NCBI GenBank assembly: GCA_963705885.1
Contig: OY970120.1
Span: forward strand, 3,497,676-3,561,675
DNA: 64,000 nucleotides
Origin: an uncultured Actinomycetota bacterium
Lineage (GTDB): Bacteria; Actinomycetota; Actinomycetes; JACCUZ01
Direction: 5' to 3'
Part shown: positions 2,108 through 23,471 of the stretch, in pieces
Numbering within the stretch: the first letter of the stretch is position 1
Layout of the letters: each line of letters starts with the position of its first letter
Position numbers and translations under genes: made by a program
The notes under the pieces: model-generated
What the model saw: only the letters and a program-made list of their open reading frames with translations
The model's database searches: none
What the model was told of the DNA's origin: nothing

Positions 2108-3394
2108 TCAGTCCGGACGCGGGTACGCCGGGTGGCGCCCGACCAGGGCGCCGACCGCGTCGGCCACCTCGCCCGCCGCCGAGCCGTCGGCGTCGCGCAC
2201 CGCCCGGCCGATGAGGCTCGCGACCTCCTTCATCGCCGTCTCGGTCATGCCCTGTGTGGTGACCGCCGGTGTGCCCACCCGGATGCCCGACGCCGTCATG
2301 GGCGGCTGCGGGTCGTAGGGGATCGCGTTCTTGTTCAGCGTGATCCTCGCCGCGTCGCAGCGCTGCTCCGCCTCCGCGCCGGTGACCCCGAGGTCCCGCA
2401 GGTCGAGCAGGGCGAGGTGCGTGTCGGTGCCGCCGGACACGGGACGCATGCCCTCGGCCTCGAGGGCGTGCGAGAGCGCCTGGGCGTTGGCGACCACCTG
2501 GTGGGCGTAGTCGCGGTAGGAGGGCTGGAGGCACTCGCGCAGCGCGACCGCCTTCGCCGCCACCGCGTGCATGAGAGGCCCGCCCTGCGAGAACGGGAAC
2601 ACCGCCTTGTCGATGCGCGCCGCCAGCTCGGGCCGGCAGACGACCATCCCGCCGCGGGGCCCGCGCAGCACCTTGTGCGTCGTGAACGTCACCACGTCGG
2701 CGTGCGGGACGGGCGACGGGATCGCGGCGCCGGCGACGAGCCCGATGAAGTGCGCCGCGTCGACCATCAGCCAGGCGCCGACCTCGTCGGCGATCTCGCG
2801 GAACCGGGCGAAGTCGATCAGCCGCGGGTAGGCGGTCGCGCCCGCGATGATCATCTTGGGCCGGTGCTCGAGCGCCAGGTCGCGCACCTCGTCGTAGTCG
2901 ATGAGCTCGGTGTCCCGGCGCACCGTGTAGGGCACCGGCCGGAACCAGGTGCCCGAGAAGCTGACCTTGCTGCCGTGGGTGAGGTGGCCCCCGTGCGGGA
3001 GCGACATGGCCAGCACGGTGTCGCCGGGCTGCACCAGGGCGGCGTAGGCCGCGAGGTTCGCGCTCGCGCCGGAGTGCGGCTGGAGGTTGACGTGGATGTC
3101 GGTGCCGGGCGGCGCGAAGAGCTCCTTGGCCCGCGCGATGCCGATGTCCTCGGCCTTGTCGACCTCCTGGCAACCGCCGTAGTAGCGGCGACCCGGGTAG
3201 CCCTCCGCGTACTTGTTGGACAGCGTGGAGCCGAGCGCGGCCAGCACGGCCGGAGAGGTGAGGTTCTCGCTGGCGATGAGCTGCAGGCCGCTGCGCAACC
3301 GGTCCAGCTCGCCGACCAGCACGTCGGCGATCTCCGGGTCCTCGTCCTGCAGGGCCTGGAAGTCAGGGCCCCAGAACGGCGTGGAGCGGCTCAT
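2108..3394 (-). CDS. glyA: serine hydroxymethyltransferase
   Basis: 428-aa ORF; IASENLTSPAVLAALGSTLSNKYAEGYPGRRYYGGC and TTHKVLRGPRGGMV (PLP-lysine region) are canonical SHMT. Confidence 0.95.
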   Translation of the reverse strand: MSRSTPFWGPDFQALQDEDPEIADVLVGELDRLRSGLQLIASENLTSPAVLAALGSTLSNKYAEGYPGRRYYGGCQEVDKAEDIGIARAKELFAPPGTDIHVNLQPHSGASANLAAYAALVQPGDTVLAMSLPHGGHLTHGSKVSFSGTWFRPVPYTVRRDTELIDYDEVRDLALEHRPKMIIAGATAYPRLIDFARFREIADEVGAWLMVDAAHFIGLVAGAAIPSPVPHADVVTFTTHKVLRGPRGGMVVCRPELAARIDKAVFPFSQGGPLMHAVAAKAVALRECLQPSYRDYAHQVVANAQALSHALEAEGMRPVSGGTDTHLALLDLRDLGVTGAEAEQRCDAARITLNKNAIPYDPQPPMTASGIRVGTPAVTTQGMTETAMKEVASLIGRAVRDADGSAAGEVADAVGALVGRHPAYPRPD

Positions 3395-4889: not shown

Positions 4890-5956
4890 CGCGCCGAGGC
4901 CAGCTTGGCCTCGGTGTCCGCGTCGACGAGCGCCTGCACCACCGCGTCGAGGTCGCCGTCGAGGACCTGGTCGAGGTTGTGCGACTTGTAGTTCACCCGG
5001 TGGTCGGCGATGCGGTTCTCGGGGAAGTTGTAGGTCCGCACCCGCTCCGACCGGTCGACGGTGCGCACCTGGCTGCGCCGGGCGTCGGAGGCCTCCTGGT
5101 CGGCCTCCTCCTGGGCCGCGGCGAGCAGTCGGGCCCGCAGGATGCGCATCGCCTGCTCGCGGTTCTGCAGCTGGGACTTCTCGTTCTGGCAGGACGCCAC
5201 GACGCCGGTCGGGACGTGGGTGATCCGCACGGCCGAGTCGGTGGTGTTCACGCTCTGACCGCCGGGACCGGACGAGCGGTAGACGTCGATGCGCAGGTCG
5301 TTCGGGTCGATCGCGACGTCGACCTCCTCGGCCTCGGGCAGCACGAGCACCCCCGCGGCGCTGGTGTGGATGCGGCCCTGCGACTCGGTGACCGGGACGC
5401 GCTGCACACGATGCACCCCGCCCTCGTACTTCAGCCGCGCCCACACCCCGTGGCCTGGCGGGGGCGTGCCGCGGGACTTCACCGCGAGCTGGACGTCCTT
5501 GTAGCCGCCCATGTCGGTCTCGGTGGCCTCGAGGACCTCGGTCCGCCAGCCGACCCGCTCGGCGTAGCGCAGGTACATGCGCAGCAGGTCGCCCGCGAAC
5601 AGCGCGGACTCCTCGCCGCCCTCCCCCGCCTTGATCTCGACGATGACGTCCTTGTCGTCGTTCTCGTCGCGGGGCAGCAGGAGCATCCGCAGGCGCTCCT
5701 CCAGCTCGGCGCGGCGTGCCTCCATGACCGGCACCTCGGCCCGGAACGACTCGTCCTCGGTCGCGAGCTCGCGCGCCGTGGCGAGGTCCGCGGCCAGCAC
5801 CTGCAGGGCACGGTGCGCCTCGACCACGGGAGTCAGGGCGGCGTAGCGCTTGCCGAGCGCCCGGGCGCGCGCCTGGTCGCCGTGGACGGCGGGGTCGGCG
5901 AGCTCGACCTCGAGCCGTGCGTGCTCGGCGAGCAGCTCGGCCGGTGCCTCCAGCAC
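4886..5956 (-). CDS. prfA: peptide chain release factor 1
   Basis: GGQ motif ([26 protein letters not shown]). GTG start ([15 protein letters not shown]) preceded by GGAGAGGAG RBS. Confidence 0.9.
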
Positions 5957-6052
5957 GGCTGGCTCCTCTCCGTGACGACCCGCGACATGACGAACGACGA
6001 CAACGGCGCCGGCCCGCACCCGTGGGGGTGCGCGACCGACGCCGGTACCGAG

Positions 6053-6268
6053 CTACTTGCTGCCGGACTTGCCGAAGCGCTTCTCGAACCGGGCGACGCG
6101 GCCGCCGGTGTCGAGGATCTTCTGCTTGCCGGTGTAGAAGGGGTGGCACTGCGAGCAGACCTCGGCGTGGATGACGCCGTTCTTCGCGGTGCTGCGCGTC
6201 GTGAACGTGTTGCCACAGCTGCAGGTGGCTGTCGTCTCGACGTACTCCGGGTGGATGTCGGGCTTCAC
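6053..6268 (-). CDS. rpmE: 50S ribosomal protein L31 (Zn-ribbon C+ form)
   Basis: 71 aa: [69 protein letters not shown] start with AGGAG RBS. Confidence 0.9.
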
Positions 6269-6357
6269 TGGTGATCTCCTCGTGGTGTCGGTCGCCGGGT
6301 CGCCGGGCCTCGGACGGCAGGCGTGAACCGGAACCAGCGCGCCAGTCTGCCAGAGAC

Positions 6358-6389
6358 CGGGGCCTCCCTCACAACCCGACGGAGGCCCC
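6358..6389 (-). terminator. 9-bp perfect inverted repeat (GGGGCCTCC-n14-GGAGGCCCC) overlapping the stop of the HAD gene; candidate intrinsic terminator of the accessory operon, upstream of the rpmE promoter
   Basis: Inverted repeat read directly from the sequence; GC-rich stem, weak U tract. Confidence 0.35.
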
Positions 6390-7109
6390 ACGGTGTTCCC
6401 GCGCCGCGGGCAGGAGCGACAGGAGCAGCCCGGTGGCGGCGGCGAAGGAGCCGACCGTCCGCCAGGGCCGGTGGGGACCGTCCGGCTCGGCCGCGTACTC
6501 CCCGGTGAGGACACGCACCGGGTGGATGCCCACCGCCAGCGCCCCGGCCACGTCCTTGGCCGGCCGGTCGCCGACGTGGACGACCTGGCCCGCCGGCAGC
6601 CCCAGCAGGTCCAGGGCGCGGCGGAACGGCGCGGGGTGGGGCTTGCGCAGCGCGCGGCCGGCGGCCCCGTCGGCGACCAGCTCGTCGGAGACGACCACGG
6701 CCTGGAGCAGGCCACGGACGCCGAGCGCGTCGAGCTTGGCGTGCTGGATGCGGGGGTTGCCGTCCGTGACGCACACGACGGGCGCCCGGGCGGCGAGCGC
6801 GCTCAGCGCGTCGACCACGCCGGGGTACGGCGCGAGGCGCGACGGTGCGTGCCCCGCGAACGCGTCGACCAGGTCGGGCACGTGCCCGGCGGGGCCGCCC
6901 AGTTCGGCGAGCGCCCGGTCGATGATGCCGCCCCGGTCGGACCCGGCCGCGGCGGCCCGGTGCAGCGCCGCCAGCAGCTCGTCCTCGGGGAGCCCCAGCA
7001 GGCCCCCGCGGGCGGCGACCGCCCGCCAGGCGCCGGCCAGCCAGCGCTCCTGCGGGAACAGCGTGTCGTCCAGGTCGACGGTGACGCCCCGGACCGGAGC
7101 GCCGGTCAC
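6369..7109 (-). CDS. HAD-superfamily hydrolase/phosphatase
   Basis: [11 protein letters not shown] (DxD nucleophile motif) plus a C-terminal [11 protein letters not shown] motif. GTG start overlaps the wecB stop (GTGA). Confidence 0.7.
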
Positions 7110-8263
7110 CGGGCGGGCCCGGCGAGGGCCGGGGTCGGCTGCTGCCCGAGGCCGGGCTCGCGCGGGGCGAGCAGGTCGCGCACGGCCGGCTCGTCGAGCA
7201 CCTCGACGACCCGGTCGGCCGTGTGCCCGTCGCCGTAGGGGCAGGGCAGGCCGGCGACCCGCGCCAGGGCCGCGGGGTCGGTGAGCGCGTCGGCGGCCGC
7301 GAGCACCCGGTCGCGGTCGAGCCCGGTGAGGACCGCCGCCCCGCTGCGGACGCCCTCCCACCGCGGTGTCGTCGTGCGCATCACGACGACCGGGACGCCG
7401 AGCCAGGACGCCTCCTCCTGCAGCCCGCCGCTGTCGGTCACGGCCACCCGGCTCGCAGCCAGGGCCGCCAGCAGCGCGGGGTAGGGCAGCGGGTCGGTGC
7501 AGGTCACGCCTGGGGCGGCCGACAGGTCTGCGAGCAGGTCCTGCTCGGCGAGCCGGGCCCGGGTCCGCGGGTGCAGCGGGAAGAGCACGGGCCCGTGGCG
7601 CTCGCCGAGGTCCGCGACGAGCCGGGTCAGCTCCCGCAGCCGCACCGGGTCGTCGACGTTGGTGGCGCGGTGCGCCGTGACGAGCACGCCCCGTCGGTCG
7701 GCCGGCGGGACGGCCGGGACGCCGCGCAGGCGCAGCGTGTCGATGACGGGGTTGCCCACCACGCGCACCCGCTCGGCCGGGACCCCCTCGTCGGCCAGGA
7801 ACCGCGCGGCCAGGTCCGTCGGCGCGAGGTGCAGTGTCGCCAGGGCCGCGACCATCCGGCGGTTGCTCTCCTCCATCGAGGTCTCGTTGAATGACCGCAG
7901 GCCCGCCTCGAGGTGGGCCACCCCGACCCCGTGACGGCGGGCCGCCATGGCCATCAGAGGCGCGGTCCAGGTGTCGCCGAGCACGAGCACGAGGTCCGGC
8001 CGGTTCTCCCCGACCTCCTGGAAGGAGCGCGCGAGCAGCGCACCGACCCGCTCCCCCTCGGTCCCGGCCAGCTCCCAGACGGCGTCGGGTGCGAGCCCGA
8101 GGTCGGCGAACACCTGGCCGTACATCCCGGCGTCGACGTGTTGCCCGGTCGCGACGCACCGCACCCGGTGACCGCGGGCACGCAGGGCGCCGACGACGCC
8201 GGCCAGCTTGATGACCTCGGGCCTGGTCCCCACCGGGACCGTGATCCGCAGCGGCTGCGTCAT
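7106..8263 (-). CDS. wecB: UDP-N-acetylglucosamine 2-epimerase (non-hydrolysing)
   Basis: MTQPLRITVPVGTRPEVIKLAGVV...HLEAGLRSFN...VVGNPVIDTL are epimerase motifs. ATG overlaps the stop of the upstream ATP-grasp gene (ATGA). Confidence 0.85.
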   Translation of the reverse strand: MTQPLRITVPVGTRPEVIKLAGVVGALRARGHRVRCVATGQHVDAGMYGQVFADLGLAPDAVWELAGTEGERVGALLARSFQEVGENRPDLVLVLGDTWTAPLMAMAARRHGVGVAHLEAGLRSFNETSMEESNRRMVAALATLHLAPTDLAARFLADEGVPAERVRVVGNPVIDTLRLRGVPAVPPADRRGVLVTAHRATNVDDPVRLRELTRLVADLGERHGPVLFPLHPRTRARLAEQDLLADLSAAPGVTCTDPLPYPALLAALAASRVAVTDSGGLQEEASWLGVPVVVMRTTTPRWEGVRSGAAVLTGLDRDRVLAAADALTDPAALARVAGLPCPYGDGHTADRVVEVLDEPAVRDLLAPREPGLGQQPTPALAGPAR

Positions 8264-9756
8264 CCCTCGAAGACCTCGCTGAAGTGGCGCATCATCCGCA
8301 CCCCGGGTCGGGCGACGAGCCGCTCGGCACGCAGCGGCAGCCCCAGCACCGCCCGGAGGTACTCCTCCACCAGGTCCGCGCCGGAGGCGAGGCTGAGCGG
8401 CAGCCCGCCGGAGAACCTCGGGTTGACCTCGAGCACGACGACGCTGCCGTCGTCCTGCACGAACCCCTGCACGTTGGCCGGTCCGGTGATCTCCACGGCC
8501 TTCAGGGTCAGTGCCACGACGTTGGCGACCTCGTCGTGGAGGAACGTCTCGCCCAGGGTGGAGATGCCACCTCGGGTCGCGAGCCGCCACCGGGCCGCCG
8601 CGCCGGCGAGGTTGCCCGAGGGCCCGACCAGTGCGTCGCAGGTGAACTCGCGACCGGTCATCATGGTCTGGACGATCGGGTCGGGCACCACGCGCAGGGC
8701 GCTGGCCAGCTGCGCCCGCGTGGAGGCGGTCACCACGTCGCGCGAGCCGCGTCCGAAGCGGGGCTTGACGACCCACGGCCCCGGCACGCCCTCTGCGCTG
8801 CCGAGGCCGGTCGCGGGCGTCGGCACCCCGCTCGCCGCGAGGACGGTGTGGAACCGCCACTTGTCGGTGCAGCTCTCGACCGCGTCGAGGCTCGGGAACA
8901 TCGTGGCGACGCCGGCCTCCTCGAGGTAGTCCGCAGCAGGGACCAGCGCGGCGTACTCCTCGGCCACGGTGCAGACGATCGCCCTCGCCCTCGACACGGT
9001 CGCGAACCGCAGCAGCGCGGCGACGTACTGCGGGTCGGTGCGCATCGGCACGACGTGGTGCTCGTCGGCGAGGCGGAGCCCGACGGCCGACGGGTCGGCG
9101 TCGACGGCGAGGACGTGGTGCCCTCGCCCCCGCAGGGCGCGGATCACGGCCACACCGGCCGGGCCGCCCGCCCCCGTGACGAGGACCCGGACCGGGGACA
9201 GGCGCTCGGGGTCGGGGAGCGGCTCGTGCCGCTGTGCCGGCGCCGGGTCGGCGTCAGCAGGCTCGTGGACGTGGTCCTTGCGCGTGCGGAACTCCTCGGC
9301 CCGCGCCGGGTCCAGCGACGGCGGAGGGACGGCGCCGGCGACCCCGGGGAGCATCGGCGCCGTGGCCCCGCCGTTGCGGAGCTCTGGATGCTTCTCGGTG
9401 TGCGCCCGTGCCCACAGCCGGAGCTCGACGACGGCGCCGGTCGAGGCCGGCTCCCACTGCCGGCTCGCCACGGTGCGCACGACTGCGGACAGGACGGCGG
9501 GGTCGGACTCGGACCGGACCGCGCGCAGCAGCGCGGGTGCCGTGGAGGCCAGCCCCATCTCGCCGGCCTGCAGGACCGCCACCTCCCGGACCGCCGGGTC
9601 CGGGTCGCGGAGCCCCGCCGTCACGCCACGGCGCACGCGCAGGAGCCGGGCGAGCCGCCAGCACGCCGCGACCAGCAGTGCCGTGATGGCCACGAGCAGC
9701 GCGATGCCCAGGACCAGCGACTGCTGCTGGTCCGTCGTCACCGCGAGAACGTCCAC
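8260..9756 (-). CDS. membrane-anchored ATP-grasp ligase (N-terminal TM helix + HEAT-like repeats + C-terminal ATP-grasp/carboxylate-amine ligase fold)
   Basis: 498 aa from GTG (VDVLAVTTDQQQSLVLGIALLVAITALLVAACWRLARLL forms the TM anchor). REVAVLQAGEMGLASTAPALLRAV looks HEAT-like. C-terminal half (VRVLVTGAGGPAGVAVIRAL...VVKPRFGRGSRDVV...VVLEVNPRFSGG) has an ATP-grasp fold. GGAG RBS upstream of the GTG. Confidence 0.6.
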   Translation of the reverse strand: MDVLAVTTDQQQSLVLGIALLVAITALLVAACWRLARLLRVRRGVTAGLRDPDPAVREVAVLQAGEMGLASTAPALLRAVRSESDPAVLSAVVRTVASRQWEPASTGAVVELRLWARAHTEKHPELRNGGATAPMLPGVAGAVPPPSLDPARAEEFRTRKDHVHEPADADPAPAQRHEPLPDPERLSPVRVLVTGAGGPAGVAVIRALRGRGHHVLAVDADPSAVGLRLADEHHVVPMRTDPQYVAALLRFATVSRARAIVCTVAEEYAALVPAADYLEEAGVATMFPSLDAVESCTDKWRFHTVLAASGVPTPATGLGSAEGVPGPWVVKPRFGRGSRDVVTASTRAQLASALRVVPDPIVQTMMTGREFTCDALVGPSGNLAGAAARWRLATRGGISTLGETFLHDEVANVVALTLKAVEITGPANVQGFVQDDGSVVVLEVNPRFSGGLPLSLASGADLVEEYLRAVLGLPLRAERLVARPGVRMMRHFSEVFEG

Positions 9757-9788
9757 ACTGCTCCATTCGGATGAACAGGACGTCGCCT

Positions 9789-10325
9789 TTAGAGGACGTC
9801 GCTCACTCGGGCCGCTCGCGGCATGGGCGCCGTCGCGGTGGGGAGGAGGAGGTAGAGCATCAGGAAGAAGCCGACCAGCGTGTAGGCCAGGGCGAAGAAG
9901 GTGCCGATCCAGTCGTGGAAGAGCACGAGTGCGCCGCCGCCGAGCTCGTAGCCCGCCCACAGCGACATCGTGATGCGCAGCACGTTGCAGGCGAGGACCA
10001 GCGCGGCCGCGACCCCGACGGCGAACAGCCGCCGCGGCCAGGGCCCGGACAGGATGAAGAACCCTATGCAGGCGAGGGCGAGCACGGGGATCACCGCGGA
10101 GCAGTACGGCGTGAGCTGCGCCCGGAAGGCCTCCTGGTCCGGTGGCAGCAGCTGGAAGAACGTCTCGTTCACCACCGAGGCGCGGCCGCCGAACGGGCTC
10201 AGCAGGCCCATCACGAGCTCGGACTCGAGGCGGCGGACCGGGGCGTTGAGCAGGCGGAAGCCGCCCAGCGCCACCGCCAGCGCCAGGCCGAGGAAGCCGA
10301 AGACGACGAAGCGGCGCCGCGTCAT
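9789..10325 (-). CDS. exosortase/archaeosortase-family protein, short Gram-positive type (XrtG-like)
   Basis: 178-aa polytopic membrane protein with motifs of the exosortase family: Cys in LTPYCSAVIPV, N-x-x-R in LACNVLRITMSLW, downstream LFHDWIGTFFAL. ATG overlaps the GT2 stop (ATGA). Always-adjacent GT2 matches the XrtG neighbourhood as I recall it. Confidence 0.5.
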   Translation of the reverse strand: MTRRRFVVFGFLGLALAVALGGFRLLNAPVRRLESELVMGLLSPFGGRASVVNETFFQLLPPDQEAFRAQLTPYCSAVIPVLALACIGFFILSGPWPRRLFAVGVAAALVLACNVLRITMSLWAGYELGGGALVLFHDWIGTFFALAYTLVGFFLMLYLLLPTATAPMPRAARVSDVL

Positions 10326-11713
10326 CCGTGCACCCCCGCACCCGCCGGGCCTTCGGCACCCTCCAGTGCCGACCACGAGGAGCGGGCGGTCTTGACCCAC
10401 GCGTAGCGACGCCCGAGCAGGCCGTCCACCCACGCCTTGGTGCACACGAGCATGAACACGACGAAGATCGGGGTCATCCAGGCGATCGACCAGGCCGAGC
10501 GCCGGGGCGCCCTGCCGACCATCAGCCCGACCGCCAGCTCGCAGAAGGGGCCGGCGAAGAGCAGCGCGGCCAGCGGCAGCATCTCGAACAGCGTGACCTG
10601 CGGGCCGAGCCCGCCGATGCGCAGCACCGTCATCAGCAGCGTGACCGTGCACAGCACGGGCACGTGGTAGACGAGCAGGAAGAGCATCGTCTCGACCTTC
10701 TCCAGCGGGGCGAGCCGGGTGCTGCTCAGCACGTGCCGGCGGTAGTCGCGCCAGACCTGCTGGTGGCCGCGCGCCCAGCGGTAGCGCTGCTTGACGAACC
10801 GCCCGAGGGTCGTGGCCCCCTCCTCGGTGTCGACCGCAGTGATGTCGTAGCGCACCCGGTCACCCCGGAGCACGACCCGCAGCGTCAGGTCCGTGTCCTC
10901 GGTGACGCTGTCGACGTTCCAGCCGCCCAGCGCGCGCAGCGTGCTGGCCCGCACGGCGCAGTTGGCCCCGCCGTACGCCGGCAGCTCGAACAGCGCCTGA
11001 CGGCCGTACTCGTTGACGAGGTAGCCGGAGAAGTAGTCGATCGCGATCGACCGGGCCAGCTTCGACTGGATGGAGTTGCGCACGATGCACCGGCCCTGCA
11101 CGGCCGACACGCGGGGGTCCTGGAAGTGCCGGACCAGCCGCTCCACGACGTTGCGGCGGGGGATGTGGTCGGCGTCGAAGATCACGATGATCTCACCGCG
11201 GGCGATCGCCGCGGCGTCGTTGAGGGCGCCCGACTTCCCGCCGCCGGCACCCGCCGGCCGGTTGAGCACCGTGATGTGCCGCTCGCCGGCCGTCAACGAC
11301 GCGAGCAGCTCGCCGGTCCCGTCGGTGGACGCGTCGTCGACGAGGATGATCTCCAGCCGCGACCGCGGGTAGTGCAGCGCCCGCAGACCCCGCACGAGGT
11401 TGTCTGCGACCAGCGCCTCGTTGTGGCAGGCGACCAGGACCGACACGTTCGGGCGGTAGGCCAGGTCGACCTCCGCGACGTCGTAGAGGTCGCGCGGTGC
11501 CCAGCGCACCGCGGCTGAGGCGAACGCGACGTGGCGCAGGAAGAAGACGAGGAACGCGAGGTTGACCAGCACCGACGCGGTGATGATGGCCCGGTCGACG
11601 CCGGCGACGGCGACGAGAAGCGCTCCCGCACCGACGATCCACAGGAAGGTCCAGGGGGCGGCGTCGGCCTTCGCCCCGCTCGACGTGACGGTGGCGGTGT
11701 GCGCGGTGCTCAC
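10322..11713 (-). CDS. processive family-2 glycosyltransferase (cellulose/chitin/PNAG-synthase-like, membrane-embedded)
   Basis: N- and C-terminal TM helices flank a GT-A core with DDASTDGT, FDADH (DxD), VTEDTD and QRYRWARG (Q-x-x-R-W), the signature of processive beta-glycan synthases. GTG start overlaps the PIG-L stop. Confidence 0.75.
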   Translation of the reverse strand: MSTAHTATVTSSGAKADAAPWTFLWIVGAGALLVAVAGVDRAIITASVLVNLAFLVFFLRHVAFASAAVRWAPRDLYDVAEVDLAYRPNVSVLVACHNEALVADNLVRGLRALHYPRSRLEIILVDDASTDGTGELLASLTAGERHITVLNRPAGAGGGKSGALNDAAAIARGEIIVIFDADHIPRRNVVERLVRHFQDPRVSAVQGRCIVRNSIQSKLARSIAIDYFSGYLVNEYGRQALFELPAYGGANCAVRASTLRALGGWNVDSVTEDTDLTLRVVLRGDRVRYDITAVDTEEGATTLGRFVKQRYRWARGHQQVWRDYRRHVLSSTRLAPLEKVETMLFLLVYHVPVLCTVTLLMTVLRIGGLGPQVTLFEMLPLAALLFAGPFCELAVGLMVGRAPRRSAWSIAWMTPIFVVFMLVCTKAWVDGLLGRRYAWVKTARSSWSALEGAEGPAGAGVHG

Positions 11714-12435
11714 GGCAGGAGGCGCGTCAGGCCGGTGTTTCCGGACGGCTCCGCAGCGTCGGCGGCGTCGGCGGCCTCACGCTCCAGCTCCAGCAGCTCG
11801 TCGTCGATCTGGCGCGACGAGGACCCGTGGCCGATGTCCCACACGAAGCGCGGGCTCTCGAACGCCTCGGCGTAGCCCACCTTGGCGCGCGACCCCCAGT
11901 AGCGTGCGCCCACCTCGACGGCGTCCAGGTCGACCATCGGGCACTGCATCACCTGCGACCAGTGAGCCCGCAGCGCGGCGAGCTTGCCGGAGAGCGTCTG
12001 GTCGACCTCGACGAACACGGTCGGGTCGAACGAGGTGGTCGACGGCGACTGGTAGAAGAGGACGCGGGCCAGCCGTCGCCCCGCCGCGAGCGCGGCCTGC
12101 GAGGTCGCGACGTGGTCCTGGTGCGTGTCGTGCGGCGCGTGAGCGTAGATCACGTCGGCGCCCACCCGGGCGACGACCTCGTCAAGGGCGGCCACCGCTT
12201 CGGGGCCGTTGGTCACCCGACCGTCGCTGAAGGGGCCCCAGACCAGGTTCGCGCCGATGACCGCGGCGGCGGCCTCCTGCTCGCGGACGCGCGTGGTGAG
12301 CCCCTGCGGCCCGTGCTCGCCCGGCGTCATGACGAGCATCGTCACCTCGTCGCCGGCCGCGACGTGGCGGAGCAGCGCACCCGCGCAGCCGAGCTCGATG
12401 TCGTCGGGGTGGGCCCCGATCGCCAGCACCTTCAC
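11710..12435 (-). CDS. PIG-L/LmbE-family N-acetylglucosaminyl deacetylase
   Basis: VKVLAIGAHPDDIELGCAG...HDTHQDH are the Zn-binding motifs of the LmbE/PIG-L family. GTG start overlaps the stop of the upstream paralog (GTGA). Confidence 0.8.
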   Translation of the reverse strand: MKVLAIGAHPDDIELGCAGALLRHVAAGDEVTMLVMTPGEHGPQGLTTRVREQEAAAAVIGANLVWGPFSDGRVTNGPEAVAALDEVVARVGADVIYAHAPHDTHQDHVATSQAALAAGRRLARVLFYQSPSTTSFDPTVFVEVDQTLSGKLAALRAHWSQVMQCPMVDLDAVEVGARYWGSRAKVGYAEAFESPRFVWDIGHGSSSRQIDDELLELEREAADAADAAEPSGNTGLTRLLP

Positions 12436-12971
12436 GGCGTCACCACCAGGCGGCGGGGACGCGCGACGACCACGAGCAGGCCCGTCACGACAACGGCCAG
12501 GACGCCGAGGAGCAGCGCTCCGACGTTACCCACCTGCGACACCGGCTTCGTCGCACATCGGCGCAGGTCCTCCACCTCGTCGTCGTCGATCTCGACCTCG
12601 GCGGTCCGGTTGCCCAGGCGCCAGGACATCTCCTCGCTGCCCGAGGTCGTCACGAACGCGTTCGTGTGCCGCCCGGGGGCGAACACCGTGGGCTGACCCT
12701 GGTCGTCCCCCCCGGGTGACACCCGGTTGTGGCTTCCCACTGCGACGACGGCGGTGTCCGAGGTCGGGTTGTCCCAGCCCCAGACGATCGTGGTCGACCC
12801 CGTTCCGTTGCGCCAGTAGCACTCCGCCACCGGCTGCAGCTGCTTGCAGGTGCCCGAGCCCATGGGCGGGCACTCCACCATCGCCGCCGAGGCCGGGCGC
12901 GCGAGGAGGGCCGTCACGCCCATCAGCACCAGGACGATGACGACGGCGACGCGAGGCAGCAGGGCTGTCAC
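12432..12971 (-). CDS. small secreted protein, paralog B, with C-terminal tripartite sorting-signal-like region (KPVSQVGN + TM helix + RPRR)
   Basis: N-terminal signal peptide (…LLARPASA|AM). Mature ~110-aa Thr/Val-rich domain with conserved DDxGQPTVFxPG. C-terminus CATKPVSQVGNVGALLLGVLAVVVTGLLVVVARPRRLVVTP. Clear paralog of the adjacent upstream gene. Confidence 0.6.
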   Translation of the reverse strand: MTALLPRVAVVIVLVLMGVTALLARPASAAMVECPPMGSGTCKQLQPVAECYWRNGTGSTTIVWGWDNPTSDTAVVAVGSHNRVSPGGDDQGQPTVFAPGRHTNAFVTTSGSEEMSWRLGNRTAEVEIDDDEVEDLRRCATKPVSQVGNVGALLLGVLAVVVTGLLVVVARPRRLVVTP

Positions 12972-13507
12972 GCGGGCGCCCGACCAGTGCGACGACCGGG
13001 GCGCCCGGACAAGGCCAGCGCCCCCGCGACCGTGACGACGGCAGCGAAGGCCAGGACCGCGAGCGCGTTGCCCTCGGCCGGCACGGGCTTCTCGGAGCAG
13101 CTGGTGACGGAGGCCGCAAGCTGCACCTTGTTCCCGGTCAGCTCCCAGTCCGCACCCTTGTCGATGTCGCGCATCGTGACGGTGGGGGCCCAGACGTTGC
13201 GGCGGGTGCCCGGCAGGAAGACGGTCGGCTGTCCGAGGTCGTCCTTGACAGCCGCTGCGACGTTCGTGACCTTGTTCTCCCCGCCGACGGGCACCGTGAC
13301 CGTCGTGGCGTTCGTGCTCGTGACCCCGATGCTGACAGTGACCGTCCCGTCAGCGTTGAGGAAGTAGCAGTCGACGAACGGAGTCAGCGACTTCTTCGCG
13401 GCGTCGGCGGCAGACGCTCCGGGGGCCCAGAGCACCCCCAGGAGGGCGATCGCGAGCGCGGCGACGACCAGCCGAGCCGTCCGCGCGAGAACCAACGAGA
13501 CCCGCAT
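12968..13507 (-). CDS. small secreted protein, paralog A, with C-terminal tripartite sorting-signal-like region (KPVPAEGN + TM helix + RPGRR)
   Basis: Signal peptide (…LWAPGASA|AD). Shares CY(F/W)xNxxG(T/S)xT, DDxGQPTVFxPG, LxGN(K/R), C(S/A)xKPVxxxGN with paralog B. C-terminus [43 protein letters not shown]. Strong GGAGGA RBS. First gene of the operon. Confidence 0.6.
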
Positions 13508-13609
13508 CCTGCTCCTCCTGCACGGGACGCACCCCGGAGGCGCGTCGATACAGGAGATGTCTCGGCACGGTCCCGCGCCCGCTGAATGGGCCTCGCGGGC
13601 GATCGACCG

Positions 13610-13635
13610 GCCTGATCGGTGTAGCCCGATCAGGC
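13610..13635 (-). terminator. 10-bp perfect inverted repeat (GCCTGATCGG-tgtagc-CCGATCAGGC) 20 nt downstream of the rho stop; candidate terminator/attenuator between rho and the accessory operon
   Basis: Inverted repeat seen in the sequence; no U-tract. Confidence 0.3.
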
Positions 13636-13654
13636 GACGTCTGGGGGCAGGAGG

Positions 13655-15474
13655 TCAGTCCTCGTCGCTGCCGTTGCCGTTGCCGTTGCCAGGCACCGGC
13701 ATCGTCTGCTGGACCTGCATGAGGAACTCGGCGTTGCTCTTGGTCTTCTTCATCCGGTCGAGCAGCAGCTCGAGCGCCTGCTGGGTCTCCAGCGCGTGCA
13801 GCACGCGGCGCAGCTTCCAGGTGATCTGGAGCTCCTCGCGCGGCATGAGGATCTCCTCCTTGCGGGTGCCCGACGGGTCGACGTCGACGGCCGGGAAGAT
13901 CCGCTTGTCCGCGAGCTTGCGGTCGAGCTTGAGCTCCATGTTGCCGGTGCCCTTGAACTCCTCGAAGATCACCTCGTCCATGCGGGACCCGGTCTCGACC
14001 AGGGCGGTGGCGAGGATGGTCAGCGACCCGCCGTTCTCGATGTTGCGCGCCGCGCCGAAGAACCGCTTCGGCGGGTAGAGCGCCGTGGAGTCGACGCCTC
14101 CGGAGAGGATCCGGCCGCTGGCCGGTGCCGCGAGGTTGTACGCGCGGCCCAGCCGGGTGATCGAGTCGAGCAGGACCACCACGTCGTGACCCAGCTCGAC
14201 AAGACGCTTGGCACGCTCGATGGCGAGCTCGGCGACCATCGTGTGGTCCTCGGCCGGCCGGTCGAAGGTCGAGGCGATGACCTCGCCCTTCACCGACCGC
14301 TGCATGTCGGTGACCTCCTCCGGACGCTCGTCGACGAGCACGACCATGAGGTGGGTCTCGGGGTTGTTCTGGGTGATCGCGTTGGCGATCGCCTGCAGCA
14401 CCATCGTCTTGCCGGCCTTGGGCGGGGAGACGATCAGGCCACGCTGGCCCTTGCCGATCGGCGCCACGAGGTCGATGACCCGGGTCGTCAGCACGCTCGG
14501 GTCGGTCTCGAGCCGCAGCCGATCCTGCGGGTACAGCGGGGTCAGCTTGGTGAACTCCACCCGGCTGCGCGCCTGGTCGGGCTCGGCGCCGTTGACGGAG
14601 TCGAGGCGGACCAGCGCGTTGAACTTCTCCTTGCGCTCGCCCTCGTGCGGCTGTCGCACCGCGCCCGTGATCGCGTCGCCCTTGCGCAGCCCGCTGTTGC
14701 GGACCTGGGCGAGCGACACGTAGACGTCGTTGGGACCGGGCAGGTAGCCCGACGTCCGCACGAAGGCGTAGTTGTCGAGGATGTCGAGGATGCCGGCCAC
14801 CGGGACGAGGACGTCGTCCTCGCTGATCTCCGGGAGCGCGCCGTCGGCGTCGCCGGGCAGGCCGTCGCGGCCCCCGCGCCGGTTGCGGTTGCGGTCGCGG
14901 TAGCGCCCGCGCCGACGGCCGCGCCCACCGCGGCCGTCCTCGTCGTCGTCGCCGTCGCGCGGGCCCTGCTGCCGGTCGCCCTGCGGCCGGTCGCCCTGCG
15001 GCCGGTCGCCCTGCGGCCGGTCTGCTGCTGCTGCCGGTCGCCCTGCTGCCGGTCGCCCTGCTGCCGGTCGCCCTGCTGCCGGTCGCCCTGCGGCCGGTCC
15101 CGCTGCTGCCGGTCGCGCTGCGGGCGGTCGCGCTGCGGCCGGTCGCCCTCCTGCTGCTCGCCGCGCTGCTCCCGGGACGGCTGCTCCGCGGGCGCCGCGG
15201 TCTCGGCCGCCGGCGGCGACGCCTGTGCCGGGGCACCGGAGCCGCCGGACTGGCGCTCCTTGATGGCCTCGATGAGCTGGCCCTTGCGCATGCGCCCCGT
15301 GCCGCTGATGCCCAGCTCGGAGGCGAGCCCCTGGAGCTCGGCCAGGACCATGCCGGAGAGGCCGCCACCCGCCTTGCGCGCGGGCTTTCGGGCGGGCTTG
15401 GTCTCGGCCGTCCCGCCGTCGGCGGGCGCGTCCAGGAGTTCTGTGCTGTCGGACACTGACTGGTCCTTCCTCAT
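13655..15474 (-). CDS. rho: transcription termination factor Rho, with an apparent +2/-1 frameshift inside the RD/QG-rich repeat linker (~15017-15033)
   Basis: N-terminus ([21 protein letters not shown]...[37 protein letters not shown], Rho_N domain) is in the frame of ORF 14542..15828. RNA-binding and ATPase body (…[17 protein letters not shown]…[22 protein letters not shown]…) is in the frame of ORF 13655..15799. The frames meet at an irregular 17-nt unit (ccggtctgctgctgctg) within otherwise 15-nt tandem repeats (ccggtcgccctgc[g/t]g = [10 protein letters not shown]). Confidence 0.8.
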
Positions 15475-15856
15475 CGACGAGGTCCTCGGGTGCGTCCCCG
15501 TGGCCCCTGCCGTGCTCTGTCGGCTGCGGTCCGCCCAGGGGCCGGTCCGCGGTGCCCGTCTTCGTCTCGTCGAGACGTCCATCTGGAGGGGGAAATCGTT
15601 CACCCGACACGACCGTTGCGACGGCCCGCTCCGCGGTGATCCCCCCAGGCCTCGCCGACTCAGCGGCTGCGACGAACGCGCAGTCGTGGGGGGTGGGAGG
15701 CCACTGTCGTCCGAGGACGCCGGGCGCCGGAGCGCCCGAGATCGTGGCGGAGCACCGGGCCACTCGCGGTGGCGTCTGGTGCGATGCCGAGCGTAACACC
15801 CCCCACCGCCGGATCGTCCCGACCGCACGAATGGGCGCGCGCCGCGCCCCGCCCGC

Positions 15857-19184: not shown

Positions 19185-19835
19185 TCAGGGGGTGACGACG
19201 TGGATGTTGATGTCGTAGCGGCCGAGGCAGCCGGCCAGGCCGAGCCAGAGCACGAGGTACATCTCGAGACCGCGAGCCGACGAGATGCCGCCGAGGTCGC
19301 GGATGTTCTCCGCCGCCCAGCCCGTCTCCTGGAGCAGGGAGCGCACGGTCGCCTTGGCGTCGCCGTCGTCGCCGGCCATGAACACGTCGTGGCTGCCGGG
19401 CAGCGCGGCCGGGTCGACCATGACGGAGGCGGTGACGGTGTTCAGCGCCTTCACGACCCGCGCCTGGGGGAAGGTCCGCTGGATGCGCTCGGCGAGGCTG
19501 TCGTCACCGACCGGGTCTAGCAGGATCGGCGGGCCGTAGGCGGCGATCGGGTTGGCGACGTCCATCAGGACCTTTCCTGACAGGTTGTCCCGGCCCGCGG
19601 CCTCCAGGGCCACGAGGGAGCTCACGCCGGCGGTCGCGTTGACCACGACGTCGCCGTGGGCCGCTGCGTCGGCGAACGTGCCGGCCGTGCCTCGCCCACC
19701 GGTCCCACCCGCCCAGCCCACCGCCGCCGCGTTGTCGGCGGTGCGCGACCCCATGACCACGTCGTGGCCGAGCTCGACGAACCGGGTCGCCAGTGTCGTG
19801 CCGACCGTCCCCGTCCCGAGGACGCCGATGCGCAT
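19185..19835 (-). CDS. NADP oxidoreductase, coenzyme F420-dependent family (Npd-like Rossmann protein)
   Basis: [31 protein letters not shown] is a dinucleotide-binding fold; 216 aa. Confidence 0.6.
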   Translation of the reverse strand: MRIGVLGTGTVGTTLATRFVELGHDVVMGSRTADNAAAVGWAGGTGGRGTAGTFADAAAHGDVVVNATAGVSSLVALEAAGRDNLSGKVLMDVANPIAAYGPPILLDPVGDDSLAERIQRTFPQARVVKALNTVTASVMVDPAALPGSHDVFMAGDDGDAKATVRSLLQETGWAAENIRDLGGISSARGLEMYLVLWLGLAGCLGRYDINIHVVTP

Positions 19836-23398: not shown

Positions 23399-23471
23399 GC
23401 CCCCGTAGCTCAGGGGATAGAGCACCGCCCTCCGGAGGCGGTGGCGTAGGTTCGAATCCTACCGGGGGCGC
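23399..23471 (+). tRNA. tRNA-Arg (anticodon CCG)
   Basis: GCCCCCG acceptor stem, GTAGCTCAGGGGATAGAGCA D-arm, anticodon loop CTCCGGA (CCG), T-arm GGTTCGAATCC, 3' CGGGGGC; cloverleaf folds by eye. Confidence 0.8.

Follow-up and report, generated by a model that had tools for sequence, protein, structure and literature searches.

Gene organization of the rho-rpmE interval

The DNA analyzed here is a stretch of 64,000 nucleotides (hereafter, the window) from an uncultured soil bacterium of the Actinomycetota (GenBank assembly GCA_963705885.1, contig OY970120.1, positions 3,497,676 to 3,561,675 of the forward strand), and the subject of this report is the gene cluster between rho and rpmE (window positions 6269-13654). 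The interval holds a single co-directional cluster on the minus strand (6369-13507, 7139 bp), consisting of eight genes (g1 to g8, counted from the rho side), which encode two secreted proteins, a PIG-L/LmbE-family de-N-acetylase, a family 2 glycosyltransferase (GT2), a short exosortase-family protein, an ATP-grasp ligase, WecB, and a HAD-superfamily hydrolase. The borders of the interval are the rho stop codon (13655-13657) and the rpmE start codon, which is the GTG at 6268-6266 and not at 6269. Judging from this gene content, the cluster is very probably an exosortase sorting and amino-sugar glycan cassette.

Because the window is approximately 73% GC, lists of the longest open reading frames (ORFs) are misleading. 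The number of genes was therefore determined with a frame plot of the GC content at third codon positions (GC3) and by inspection of the start codons. The six-gene model obtained from the longest-ORF lists was rejected; two genes, the 178-amino-acid (aa) exosortase (9789-10325) and WecB (7106-8263), are hidden inside over-long ORFs, and the long N-terminal extensions of the ORFs for the HAD and ATP-grasp proteins are out-of-frame artifacts. Independent gene calls on identical public contigs gave the same gene model. Start and stop codons overlap by 4 nt at six of the seven gene junctions, and thus the eight genes were considered to form one translationally coupled operon.

Secreted proteins and their C-terminal signal

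The two genes next to rho, g1 (12968-13507, minus strand) and g2 (12432-12971, minus strand), each encode a secreted protein of 179 aa, and the two are paralogues (homologous over the full length, approximately 30% identical) with a common C-terminal signal. The g1 protein, a putative exosortase substrate, is composed of a signal peptide, an all-beta domain, an 11-residue C-terminal signal, a membrane helix, and an Arg-rich tail; in g2, the C-terminal signal is CATKPVSQVGN, followed by a membrane helix and ARPRR. The AlphaFold2 model of g2 (predicted local distance difference test score, 90) contains a beta-sandwich of roughly 110 residues between the signal helix and the membrane helix, for which a fold search against the PDB gave no match at E<0.01, only generic Ig-like hits. 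Neither protein matched a Pfam or NCBIfam family, including the NCBIfam sorting-domain models; when the NCBIfam search was relaxed to E<=1, g2 had no hit and g1 had spurious threonine-dehydratase hits only.

Across 51 family members (g1, g2, and 49 relatives), the signal reads C-x-(T/S)-K-P-V-(P/S)-x-(V/I)-G-(S/N), followed by approximately 20 hydrophobic residues and then R-(P/R)-R-R; within it, no variation was seen at C, P, and V, and at least 90% of the members have K. One to three substrate copies adjoin the enzyme genes in four of the comparison loci described below (L084, L085, L087, and L130) and thus, with the window, in five lineages. Where the enzyme genes lie at another locus (L090), one substrate copy accompanies them on the opposite strand (hmmsearch, E=4e-22). 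A stand-alone substrate homologue was found in Acidothermaceae B102. A beta-propeller gene next to the cassette in L128 was considered as an alternative substrate and rejected, since it lacks a signal peptide as well as a C-terminal signal. Note that the substrate family has two invariant cysteines, C51 and C139 (g2 numbering), the latter four residues before KPV; as far as can be read from the alignment, the two may form a disulfide, or C139 may serve as a site of modification, like the Cys of MYXO-CTERM-type signals.

The exosortase and its association with the ATP-grasp ligase

The g5 product (9789-10325, minus strand; 178 aa) is a short protein with four predicted hydrophobic segments. It passes the general exosortase/archaeosortase signature models (TIGR04178, 40.6 bits, cut-off 23; PF09721, 29.6 bits, cut-off 25.7). 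Among 22 homologues, with identities down to 56%, no substitution occurs at C75, N114, R117, or H137, and the C-terminal tail PRAARVSDVL is likewise invariant. Its membership in the exosortase/archaeosortase superfamily is indicated by these signature models, by the putative Cys/Arg/His catalytic triad, and by the cognate proteins with a tripartite signal. It does not reach the cut-off of any named subfamily: the nearest is XrtS (NF033767) with 51.1 bits against a cut-off of 145, and the score against the XrtG model (TIGR03110) is 13.8 bits (E=0.04) against a cut-off of 102.75. Thus, the label "XrtG-like" given in the initial annotation does not hold, and g5 is, by profile scores, inside the exosortase superfamily and outside XrtG, XrtS, or any other modelled subfamily.

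An exhaustive search with an exosortase profile gave 186 representatives at E<=1e-10, of which three constitute the window's own family; beyond this family lies a continuum of short exosortases of 165-210 aa. Ten exosortases sampled from the wider family reached none of the named Xrt cut-offs (29-39 bits against XrtS, or no hit at E<=1e-5). A profile search for distant, named exosortase relatives returned only the same tight family.

The gene downstream of the exosortase, g6 (8260-9756, minus strand; 498 aa), encodes a protein with an N-terminal single-pass membrane anchor, a HEAT-like region, and an ATP-grasp ligase domain (PF15632, PF02655, and PF13646; 169 bits against PRK12767-type models, below the cut-off; closest PDB entry, 2pn1). 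Natural fusions of the two proteins were found in at least six independent 50%-identity representatives, all arranged with the exosortase at the N-terminus, a conserved linker, a g6-like HEAT segment (…RQWEP…LRLWARAW…), and the ATP-grasp domain at the C-terminus. Such fusions are Rosetta-stone evidence that g5 and g6 act together. Our literature searches found no paper tying an exosortase to ATP-grasp or to these actinobacterial lineages. The fusion proteins are P0247, P0261, P0266, P0292, P0295, and P0296 in our numbering, with the linker motif …RAEQD.(Y/F)GRHTARRP..W.RPG.GYR…, and several JGI entries label 178-aa exosortases as "carbamoyl-phosphate synthase large subunit", probably owing to fusions of this kind.

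Putative glycan enzymes

The PIG-L/LmbE-family protein, g3 (11710-12435, minus strand; 241 aa), matches PF02585 with 86 bits; its best NCBIfam match is BshB1 (89.7 bits, cut-off 182.5), the score against Mca is 21 (cut-off 277), its relatives in the PDB are TT1542, diacetylchitobiose deacetylase, and BshB, and no membrane segment was predicted. The membrane-embedded, cellulose-synthase-like GT2, g4 (10322-11713, minus strand; 463 aa), has predicted membrane helices at both ends, matches Pfam GT2 families, and contains DxD, TED, and QRYRW (QxxRW) motifs. It is of the processive type and most closely related to PgaC, NodC, BcsA, and hyaluronan synthase (relatives in the PDB, 6yv7, BcsA, and hyaluronan synthase), and all sub-family scores are below the cut-offs (for example, 127.7 bits against 422.3 for PgaC, TIGR03937, and 56.2 bits against 363.95 for the XrtG-associated glycosyltransferase, TIGR03111). 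The g7 product (7106-8263, minus strand; 385 aa) is WecB, the non-hydrolysing UDP-GlcNAc 2-epimerase (TIGR00236, 252.5 bits, cut-off 210; PF02350, 289.8 bits), and g8 (6369-7109, minus strand; 246 aa) encodes a HAD-superfamily hydrolase, a putative phosphatase (PF00702, 76 bits; TIGR02253, 85 bits, below the cut-off).

Distribution and age of the cassette

For comparison, loci (designated by L numbers) were collected from two scans: a rho-anchored sample of GTDB genomes, with 80 actinobacterial rho loci among the matches listed (a broad sample, not one of nearest relatives), and a prmC-anchored metagenome sample, with 31 loci among the matches listed (mostly short contigs from moderately distant relatives). 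Homologues of g1 to g8 near rho were found in none of these 80 and 31 listed loci. The exosortase family itself has 147-182 close members, whose only named carriers are Sporichthyaceae, "Acidothermus sp.", Frankiales, and unclassified Actinomycetota metagenome-assembled genomes (MAGs). The initial annotation had pointed to Nocardioides and Propionibacteriales as the place to look for the cluster; the Nocardioides loci are without it, and the named carriers are those just given.

The same six-gene core (g3 to g8) lies directly downstream of rho in the window and in L084, L085, L087, L088, L089, L092, L128, and L130, namely in nine lineages, and rpmE comes next wherever the contig reaches. These carriers vary in the number of substrate genes ahead of the core (0-3) and in additional genes (three in L092 and one in L128). 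In L090, a Frankiales MAG, the six-gene core with its substrate on the opposite strand (5083-11839) is between glnD and ffh, another junction of conserved housekeeping genes. The identities of the cassette proteins fall in parallel with those of the housekeeping proteins: between the window and L084/L087 they are approximately 80% for thrC, approximately 90% for prfA, 82-84% for GT2, 80-86% for PIG-L, and 70-77% for the exosortase, and between the window and L088/L089 they are 67%, 72-75%, 73%, 61-63%, and 56-60%, respectively. In a three-gene neighbor-joining tree, the carriers form two clades, each with 50 of 50 bootstraps, and the second is as distant from the window as Streptomyces is.

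The composition of the cassette is native. Its GC content is 0.742, against 0.734-0.738 in the flanks, its GC3 is 0.90-0.97, like that of the flanks, and the codon-usage scores of its genes are within the range of the reference genes, except for g1, which is similar to rho. This comparison with the flanks speaks against accessory acquisition. At the cluster borders, no flanking pair of direct or inverted repeats was found, and a search for att-like sequences gave only chance-level GC-rich matches. The statement in the initial annotation that neither an integrase nor a tRNA gene flanks the cluster was confirmed: every ORF of the first 24 kb is accounted for, all the neighboring genes being housekeeping genes with no integrase-like gene among them, and the nearest tRNA gene (tRNA-Arg at 23399) is 10 kb off. 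Of the usual marks of a mobile island, the presence/absence polymorphism among close relatives (see below) was found, and mobility genes, tRNA genes, repeats, and deviant composition were not.

Recent acquisition is argued against by the identities that track the housekeeping genes, by the native composition, and by the lack of mobility genes, tRNA genes, and att repeats. The initial annotation had taken the cluster for an accessory insertion. This view stands in that the site is variable and the cassette is absent from the 80 and 31 listed loci; it does not stand as to a recent date, since nine lineages carry the cassette after rho and its divergence tracks that of the housekeeping genes. The presence of a cluster at one position throughout an order would mark it as ancestral, and this distribution approaches such a situation. 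We regard it as likely that the cassette is old and has been kept vertically in Sporichthyaceae-, Acidothermus-, and Frankiales-like lineages, in a swappable slot, rather than being a recent island.

The rho-rpmE slot and probable cassette exchange

Among 56 listed loci with both rho and rpmE, the gap is shorter than 400 bp in 23 and is occupied by 1-3.6 kb of unrelated cargo in 26: a trypsin-FG-GAP protein and an LCP protein in Streptomyces, a lactate permease and a beta-lactamase-family protein in Nocardiopsis, a two-component pair in Nocardioides tweenelious and several MAGs, and TetR with an AMP-ligase in mycobacteria. Such unrelated cargo makes the rho-rpmE junction a general landing slot.

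By exact-sequence look-up of the rpmE protein of the window (6053-6268, minus strand; ribosomal protein L31 of the Zn-ribbon type, 71 aa, PF01197), two further contigs, L095 and L096, were found, in which this protein is 100% identical. The flanks of L095/L096 are 88-96% identical to those of the window (flank proteins, 88-100%; rho, 80%), and the nucleotide sequences agree as far as the slot, at 95-96% over the catalytic core of rho and 91.5% near rpmE. What L095 has in the 6.05 kb from rho to rpmE, however, is unrelated to the window cassette. Homology ends 2 nt after the rho stop codon (window position 13653) and resumes at approximately 6403-6352, before the L31 leader, being solid from approximately 6352. 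Thus, the presence/absence comparison among relatives, which the initial annotation had proposed, reveals a polymorphism.

The alternative cassette (L095, 3811-9865; also L096, 1-3966) encodes a 178-aa secreted protein ending with VPEVP, a membrane helix, and RRRR (PEP-CTERM-like), a full-length exosortase of 627 aa scoring below the cut-offs of all named subfamilies, a fusion of a NodC-like GT2 with a receiver domain (NodC, 381 bits, cut-off 550), a stand-alone response regulator (receiver), and a GAF histidine kinase. From these domains, it looks like a two-component-regulated chitooligosaccharide/exosortase system. In both cassette types, an exosortase and its substrate are paired with an N-acetylhexosamine (HexNAc)-polymer synthase. 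Since the window-type cassette is found in relatives at a greater distance, replacement of the ancestral cassette in the L095 lineage is the parsimonious reading. Two cassette types and a single lineage of close relatives with a different cassette (L095/L096) were seen. Whole cassettes can probably be exchanged at the slot, the simplest route being homologous recombination within the flanks, which are conserved.

In Jatrophihabitans-like MAGs and Dactylosporangium (L064, 11137-21137; L059, 10749-16802; L020; L032), neither rpmE nor prfA was found within 10 kb downstream of rho (in L059, only about 6 kb is covered before the contig end), so that the rho-rpmE linkage is broken or widely separated in some lineages. 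In L064 and L059, rho is followed by ORFs that resemble, by eye, components of sugar ABC transporters. In Microbacteriaceae, Micrococcaceae, Brevibacterium, and related loci (L019, L024, L027, L028, L035-L037, L039-L041, L043, L045, L050, L053, L054, and L077), prfA directly follows rho with a gap of -14 to 347 bp, and there is no rpmE.

Hairpins and the L31 leader

The L31-Actinobacteria ribosomal-protein leader (Rfam RF03158; 6290-6337, minus strand) was detected with 51.1 bits against a gathering score of 35. The conserved right flank begins at this leader, directly upstream of rpmE, and the cassette stops just short of it.

The initial annotation had described the cluster as bounded by inverted-repeat hairpins. 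Both hairpins are real; a role as insertion boundaries is not supported, however, since they look like terminators and neither is conserved in L095. The one at 13611-13634 (minus strand) has a 10-bp stem approximately 20 nt after the rho stop codon (z = -2.4 against shuffled sequences) and no T-tract, and relative to L095 it lies inside the replaced segment; its probable role is that of rho terminator or of an attenuator in front of the operon. The one at 6359-6389 (minus strand) has a 9+3-bp stem with the g8 stop codon in its loop, and its fold strength (z = -1.6) is unexceptional in DNA of 74% GC; it is in the degraded zone at the right edge, is conserved in neither L095 nor L096, and is likely the operon terminator. 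The two hairpins are unrelated to each other. Scans for intrinsic terminators and sigma-70 promoters gave one terminator-like site inside g5 and no promoters, and are uninformative at this GC content.

Flanking genes

The order of the flanking genes assigned with Pfam is lysA, a gene of the F420_oxidored family, hom, thrC, thrB, and rho on one side of the cluster, and rpmE, prfA, prmC, tsaC, glyA, a wecA-like glycosyltransferase gene (GT4), and atpB on the other; argS is also within the window, beyond lysA. The initial annotation had placed the cluster at the rho/rpmE boundary of a conserved block, and these assignments bear it out; glyA had been omitted from its list. The rho gene (13655-15799, minus strand) is a 714-aa ORF with a variable low-complexity N-terminus (TIGR00767, 644.6 bits, cut-off 509). 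This Arg/Asp/Gly/Glu-rich region (14841-15716) is indel-ridden relative to L095, with 50-64% identity and approximately 100 gap columns per 300 nt, and the rho start codon varies among public gene calls (531 aa against the 714-aa ORF).

The F420_oxidored-family gene between lysA and hom (19185-19835, minus strand; PF03807), which had been taken for a lineage-specific addition, indeed varies among lineages: the window, L085, L086, and L130 have it, and L084, L087, L088, L089, and L128 lack it. The serine hydroxymethyltransferase gene glyA (2108-3394, minus strand), between tsaC and the wecA-like gene, is present in the window, L085, and L095, and absent from L084, L087, L088, L089, and L128. 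(The F420 position of L095 and the glyA position of L130 lie off their contigs.) Since both genes vary, the "conserved" block has several small variable slots.

Proposed function and alternatives

On balance, we favor the reading that the interval holds a self-contained cassette for exosortase protein sorting and an amino-sugar glycan in a recombination-permissive slot, with the sorted proteins anchored to the glycan. In such a system, WecB and the GT2 would build an N-acetylhexosamine glycan or glycolipid at the membrane, the PIG-L enzyme would take off the N-acetyl group and expose an amine, and the ATP-grasp ligase would re-acylate it, the acyl donor probably being an amino acid. An intermediate may be dephosphorylated by the HAD enzyme; the pairing of ATP-grasp and HAD proteins is known from the amidation of the Campylobacter capsule. 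After the export of g1 and g2, the exosortase would cleave their TKPVP signal and, as a transpeptidase, would join the new C-terminus to the amine of the modified sugar, so that the proteins are fixed to the surface polymer.

The closest precedent for such an acceptor is found in the system for type IX secretion (T9SS), in which cargo C-termini are amide-linked to a 2-N-seryl or 2-N-glycyl sugar made by the deacetylase VimE and the amino-acid transferase VimA; VimA matches the PEP-CTERM-associated FemAB family, and an amino-acid-modified sugar has been proposed as the exosortase acceptor (PMC7468200). For the cassette of the window, the specific aminoacyl-sugar acceptor, drawn from this analogy, is only tentatively suggested.

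Several points weigh against the anchoring reading. We know of no exosortase with a chemically defined product. The PIG-L, ATP-grasp, and HAD proteins appear to be cytoplasmic, and the active site of the exosortase is predicted to face outward; the modified sugar would thus have to be made inside and then exported. The steps given above are inferred from gene content, the substrates of the enzymes are putative, and WecB alone among the cassette enzymes reaches a sub-family cut-off of the hidden Markov models. Four lineages (L088, L089, L092, and L128) have the enzyme core without an adjacent substrate gene, so the pairing of enzyme and substrate is not obligatory in cis. As for the age of the cassette, only 7 of 50 bootstraps of the three-gene tree join the two carrier clades as sisters, and thus a single ancestral origin is inseparable from an ancient transfer into the same slot; the sampling of close relatives is thin, the relatives being taken from the matches listed in both collection scans.

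Three other explanations were considered. That the exosortase only removes the C-terminal anchor, or exchanges it for a lipid like the archaeosortase ArtA, while the sugar enzymes make a separate, co-regulated exopolysaccharide (EPS) with no covalent link to the proteins, is rather unlikely in our opinion, yet it is the alternative to be taken most seriously: exosortases are typically found in EPS loci with no known covalent link (PMC1569441; Haft 2023 preprint), ArtA-dependent lipid attachment is documented (Haft 2023 preprint), and g4 resembles self-exporting polymer synthases. It leaves unexplained, however, why the ATP-grasp ligase is repeatedly fused to this type of exosortase, and why a cytoplasmic de-N-acetylase and a HAD protein are invariant members of the six-gene core. 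Another reading, in which the core makes a small glycoside of the mycothiol/bacillithiol type next to an unrelated exosortase-like protein and unrelated secreted proteins, was judged to be very improbable. The enzyme set does parallel MshA/MshA2/MshB/MshC and BshA/BshB/BshC, and the best NCBIfam match of g3 is BshB1. But g3 falls well below the equivalog level of BshB/MshB (89.7 bits against 182.5 for BshB1, and 21 against 277 for Mca), g4 is a GT2 with multiple transmembrane (TM) segments and QxxRW rather than a soluble GT4, the ligase is fused to the exosortase in relatives, and the substrate genes move with the core to a different locus.

The remaining explanation, that of the initial annotation, is that an accessory island, acquired recently, entered the rho/rpmE boundary of this genome by some mechanism. 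The absence of the cluster from the 80 and 31 listed loci, the different content at the same place in the close relative L095, and the frequent presence of lineage-specific cargo in the slot are all in its favor. Nevertheless, we consider it improbable, because rho is followed by this cassette, with an identical gene order, in nine lineages, one clade of which has only 67% identity in thrC and 72-75% in prfA, because the cassette identities track the housekeeping identities, because GC, GC3, and codon usage are native with no integrase, tRNA, or repeat, and because L095 is more simply read as a replacement of the ancestral cassette than as evidence of a gain in the window.

With respect to exosortases in general, the question is what the cleaved C-terminus joins and whether this step is a transpeptidation. 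The cassette offers a test case: the host is a monoderm, there are eight genes, with one to three small substrates of beta-sandwich fold and a sharply defined signal, and an amine acceptor could be created by its pair of enzymes, a de-N-acetylase and an ATP-grasp ligase, the latter being fused to the exosortase in relatives; the cassette gives a concrete hypothesis that is testable by mass spectrometry. As a speculative extension, the cassette might represent a complete, previously undescribed pathway for anchoring proteins to a glycan. An N-aminoacyl-hexosamine "linking sugar" would be made on the GT2 polymer by PIG-L together with the ATP-grasp ligase coupled to the exosortase, the short exosortase would transpeptidate TKPVP-CTERM proteins to it, and the slot would act as a serotype-like locus for the exchange of alternative exosortase cassettes. 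If true, it would be a monoderm counterpart of glycosylphosphatidylinositol (GPI) anchoring and of T9SS attachment to A-type lipopolysaccharide (A-LPS). For annotation, a sizeable unclassified exosortase clade (the 186 representatives) and an unmodelled sorting signal are at hand, for which the libraries currently give only "exosortase/archaeosortase family protein" and "hypothetical protein". For genome evolution, the gap between rho and the L31 leader in Actinomycetota would be a place where whole surface-structure cassettes are exchanged between species without mobile-element genes.

Comparison with known systems

The XrtG/Firmicu-CTERM system of Firmicutes, whose composition was described for L. 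plantarum (PMC12854382), likewise has a monoderm host and a short exosortase beside its own C-terminal-signal protein and GT2s. It differs in the enzymes (13.8 bits of 102.75 against TIGR03110 and 56.2 of 363.95 against TIGR03111), in the signal, which in the window is of the TKPVP type and not Firmicu-CTERM, and in the additional presence of PIG-L, ATP-grasp, WecB, and HAD in the window. The highest score among the named subfamilies is that of exosortase S, which is similarly short (residues 11-158 of g5 align with positions 3-153 of the 155 in NF033767); this score is nevertheless far from the cut-off (51.1 bits against 145).

With the PEP-CTERM/XrtA (EpsH) system, the cassette shares a motif abutting a membrane helix and a basic tail, a Cys/Arg/His exosortase, and a sugar-polymer locus. 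Many PEP-CTERM loci also hold a deacetylase and an amino-acid-transferring FemAB-like enzyme of TIGR03019 (PMC7468200). In contrast, the host of the window cassette is a monoderm with no outer membrane, g5 is a short protein with 4 TM segments where EpsH has 8, the PEP motif is missing, the deacetylase belongs to PIG-L and not to CE4, the ATP-grasp ligase is not FemAB-like, and the number of substrates is 0-3 rather than dozens. The poly-N-acetylglucosamine operon (pgaABCD/icaADBC) also differs, in its synthase (PgaC/IcaA, 127.7 bits against 422.3) and in its deacetylase, which is CE4 and not PIG-L. The type IX PorU sortase with its Wbp/Vim linking sugar is a works-like analogy, inferred for the window, in that a cysteine transpeptidase attaches the C-terminus of cleaved cargo to the amine of an amino-acid-modified, de-N-acetylated sugar of a surface glycan; the protein families are entirely different, the host is diderm, and attachment is at the outer membrane.

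As for the slot, capsule and O-antigen loci carry alternative cassettes between conserved genes, for example, pneumococcal cps between dexB and aliA. The rho-rpmE slot is like them in holding non-homologous surface-polymer cassettes in one place, with sharp breakpoints and no mobility genes, and unlike them in lying between rho and a ribosomal-protein leader, in the two cassette types seen, and in that flank recombination is deduced from the breakpoints. As judged from its sequence, the cassette would work like the XrtG/Firmicu-CTERM and PEP-CTERM/EPS systems, and it differs from them in the unmodelled signal, in the short 4-TM enzyme, and in that PIG-L and ATP-grasp take the places of CE4 and FemAB-like partners.

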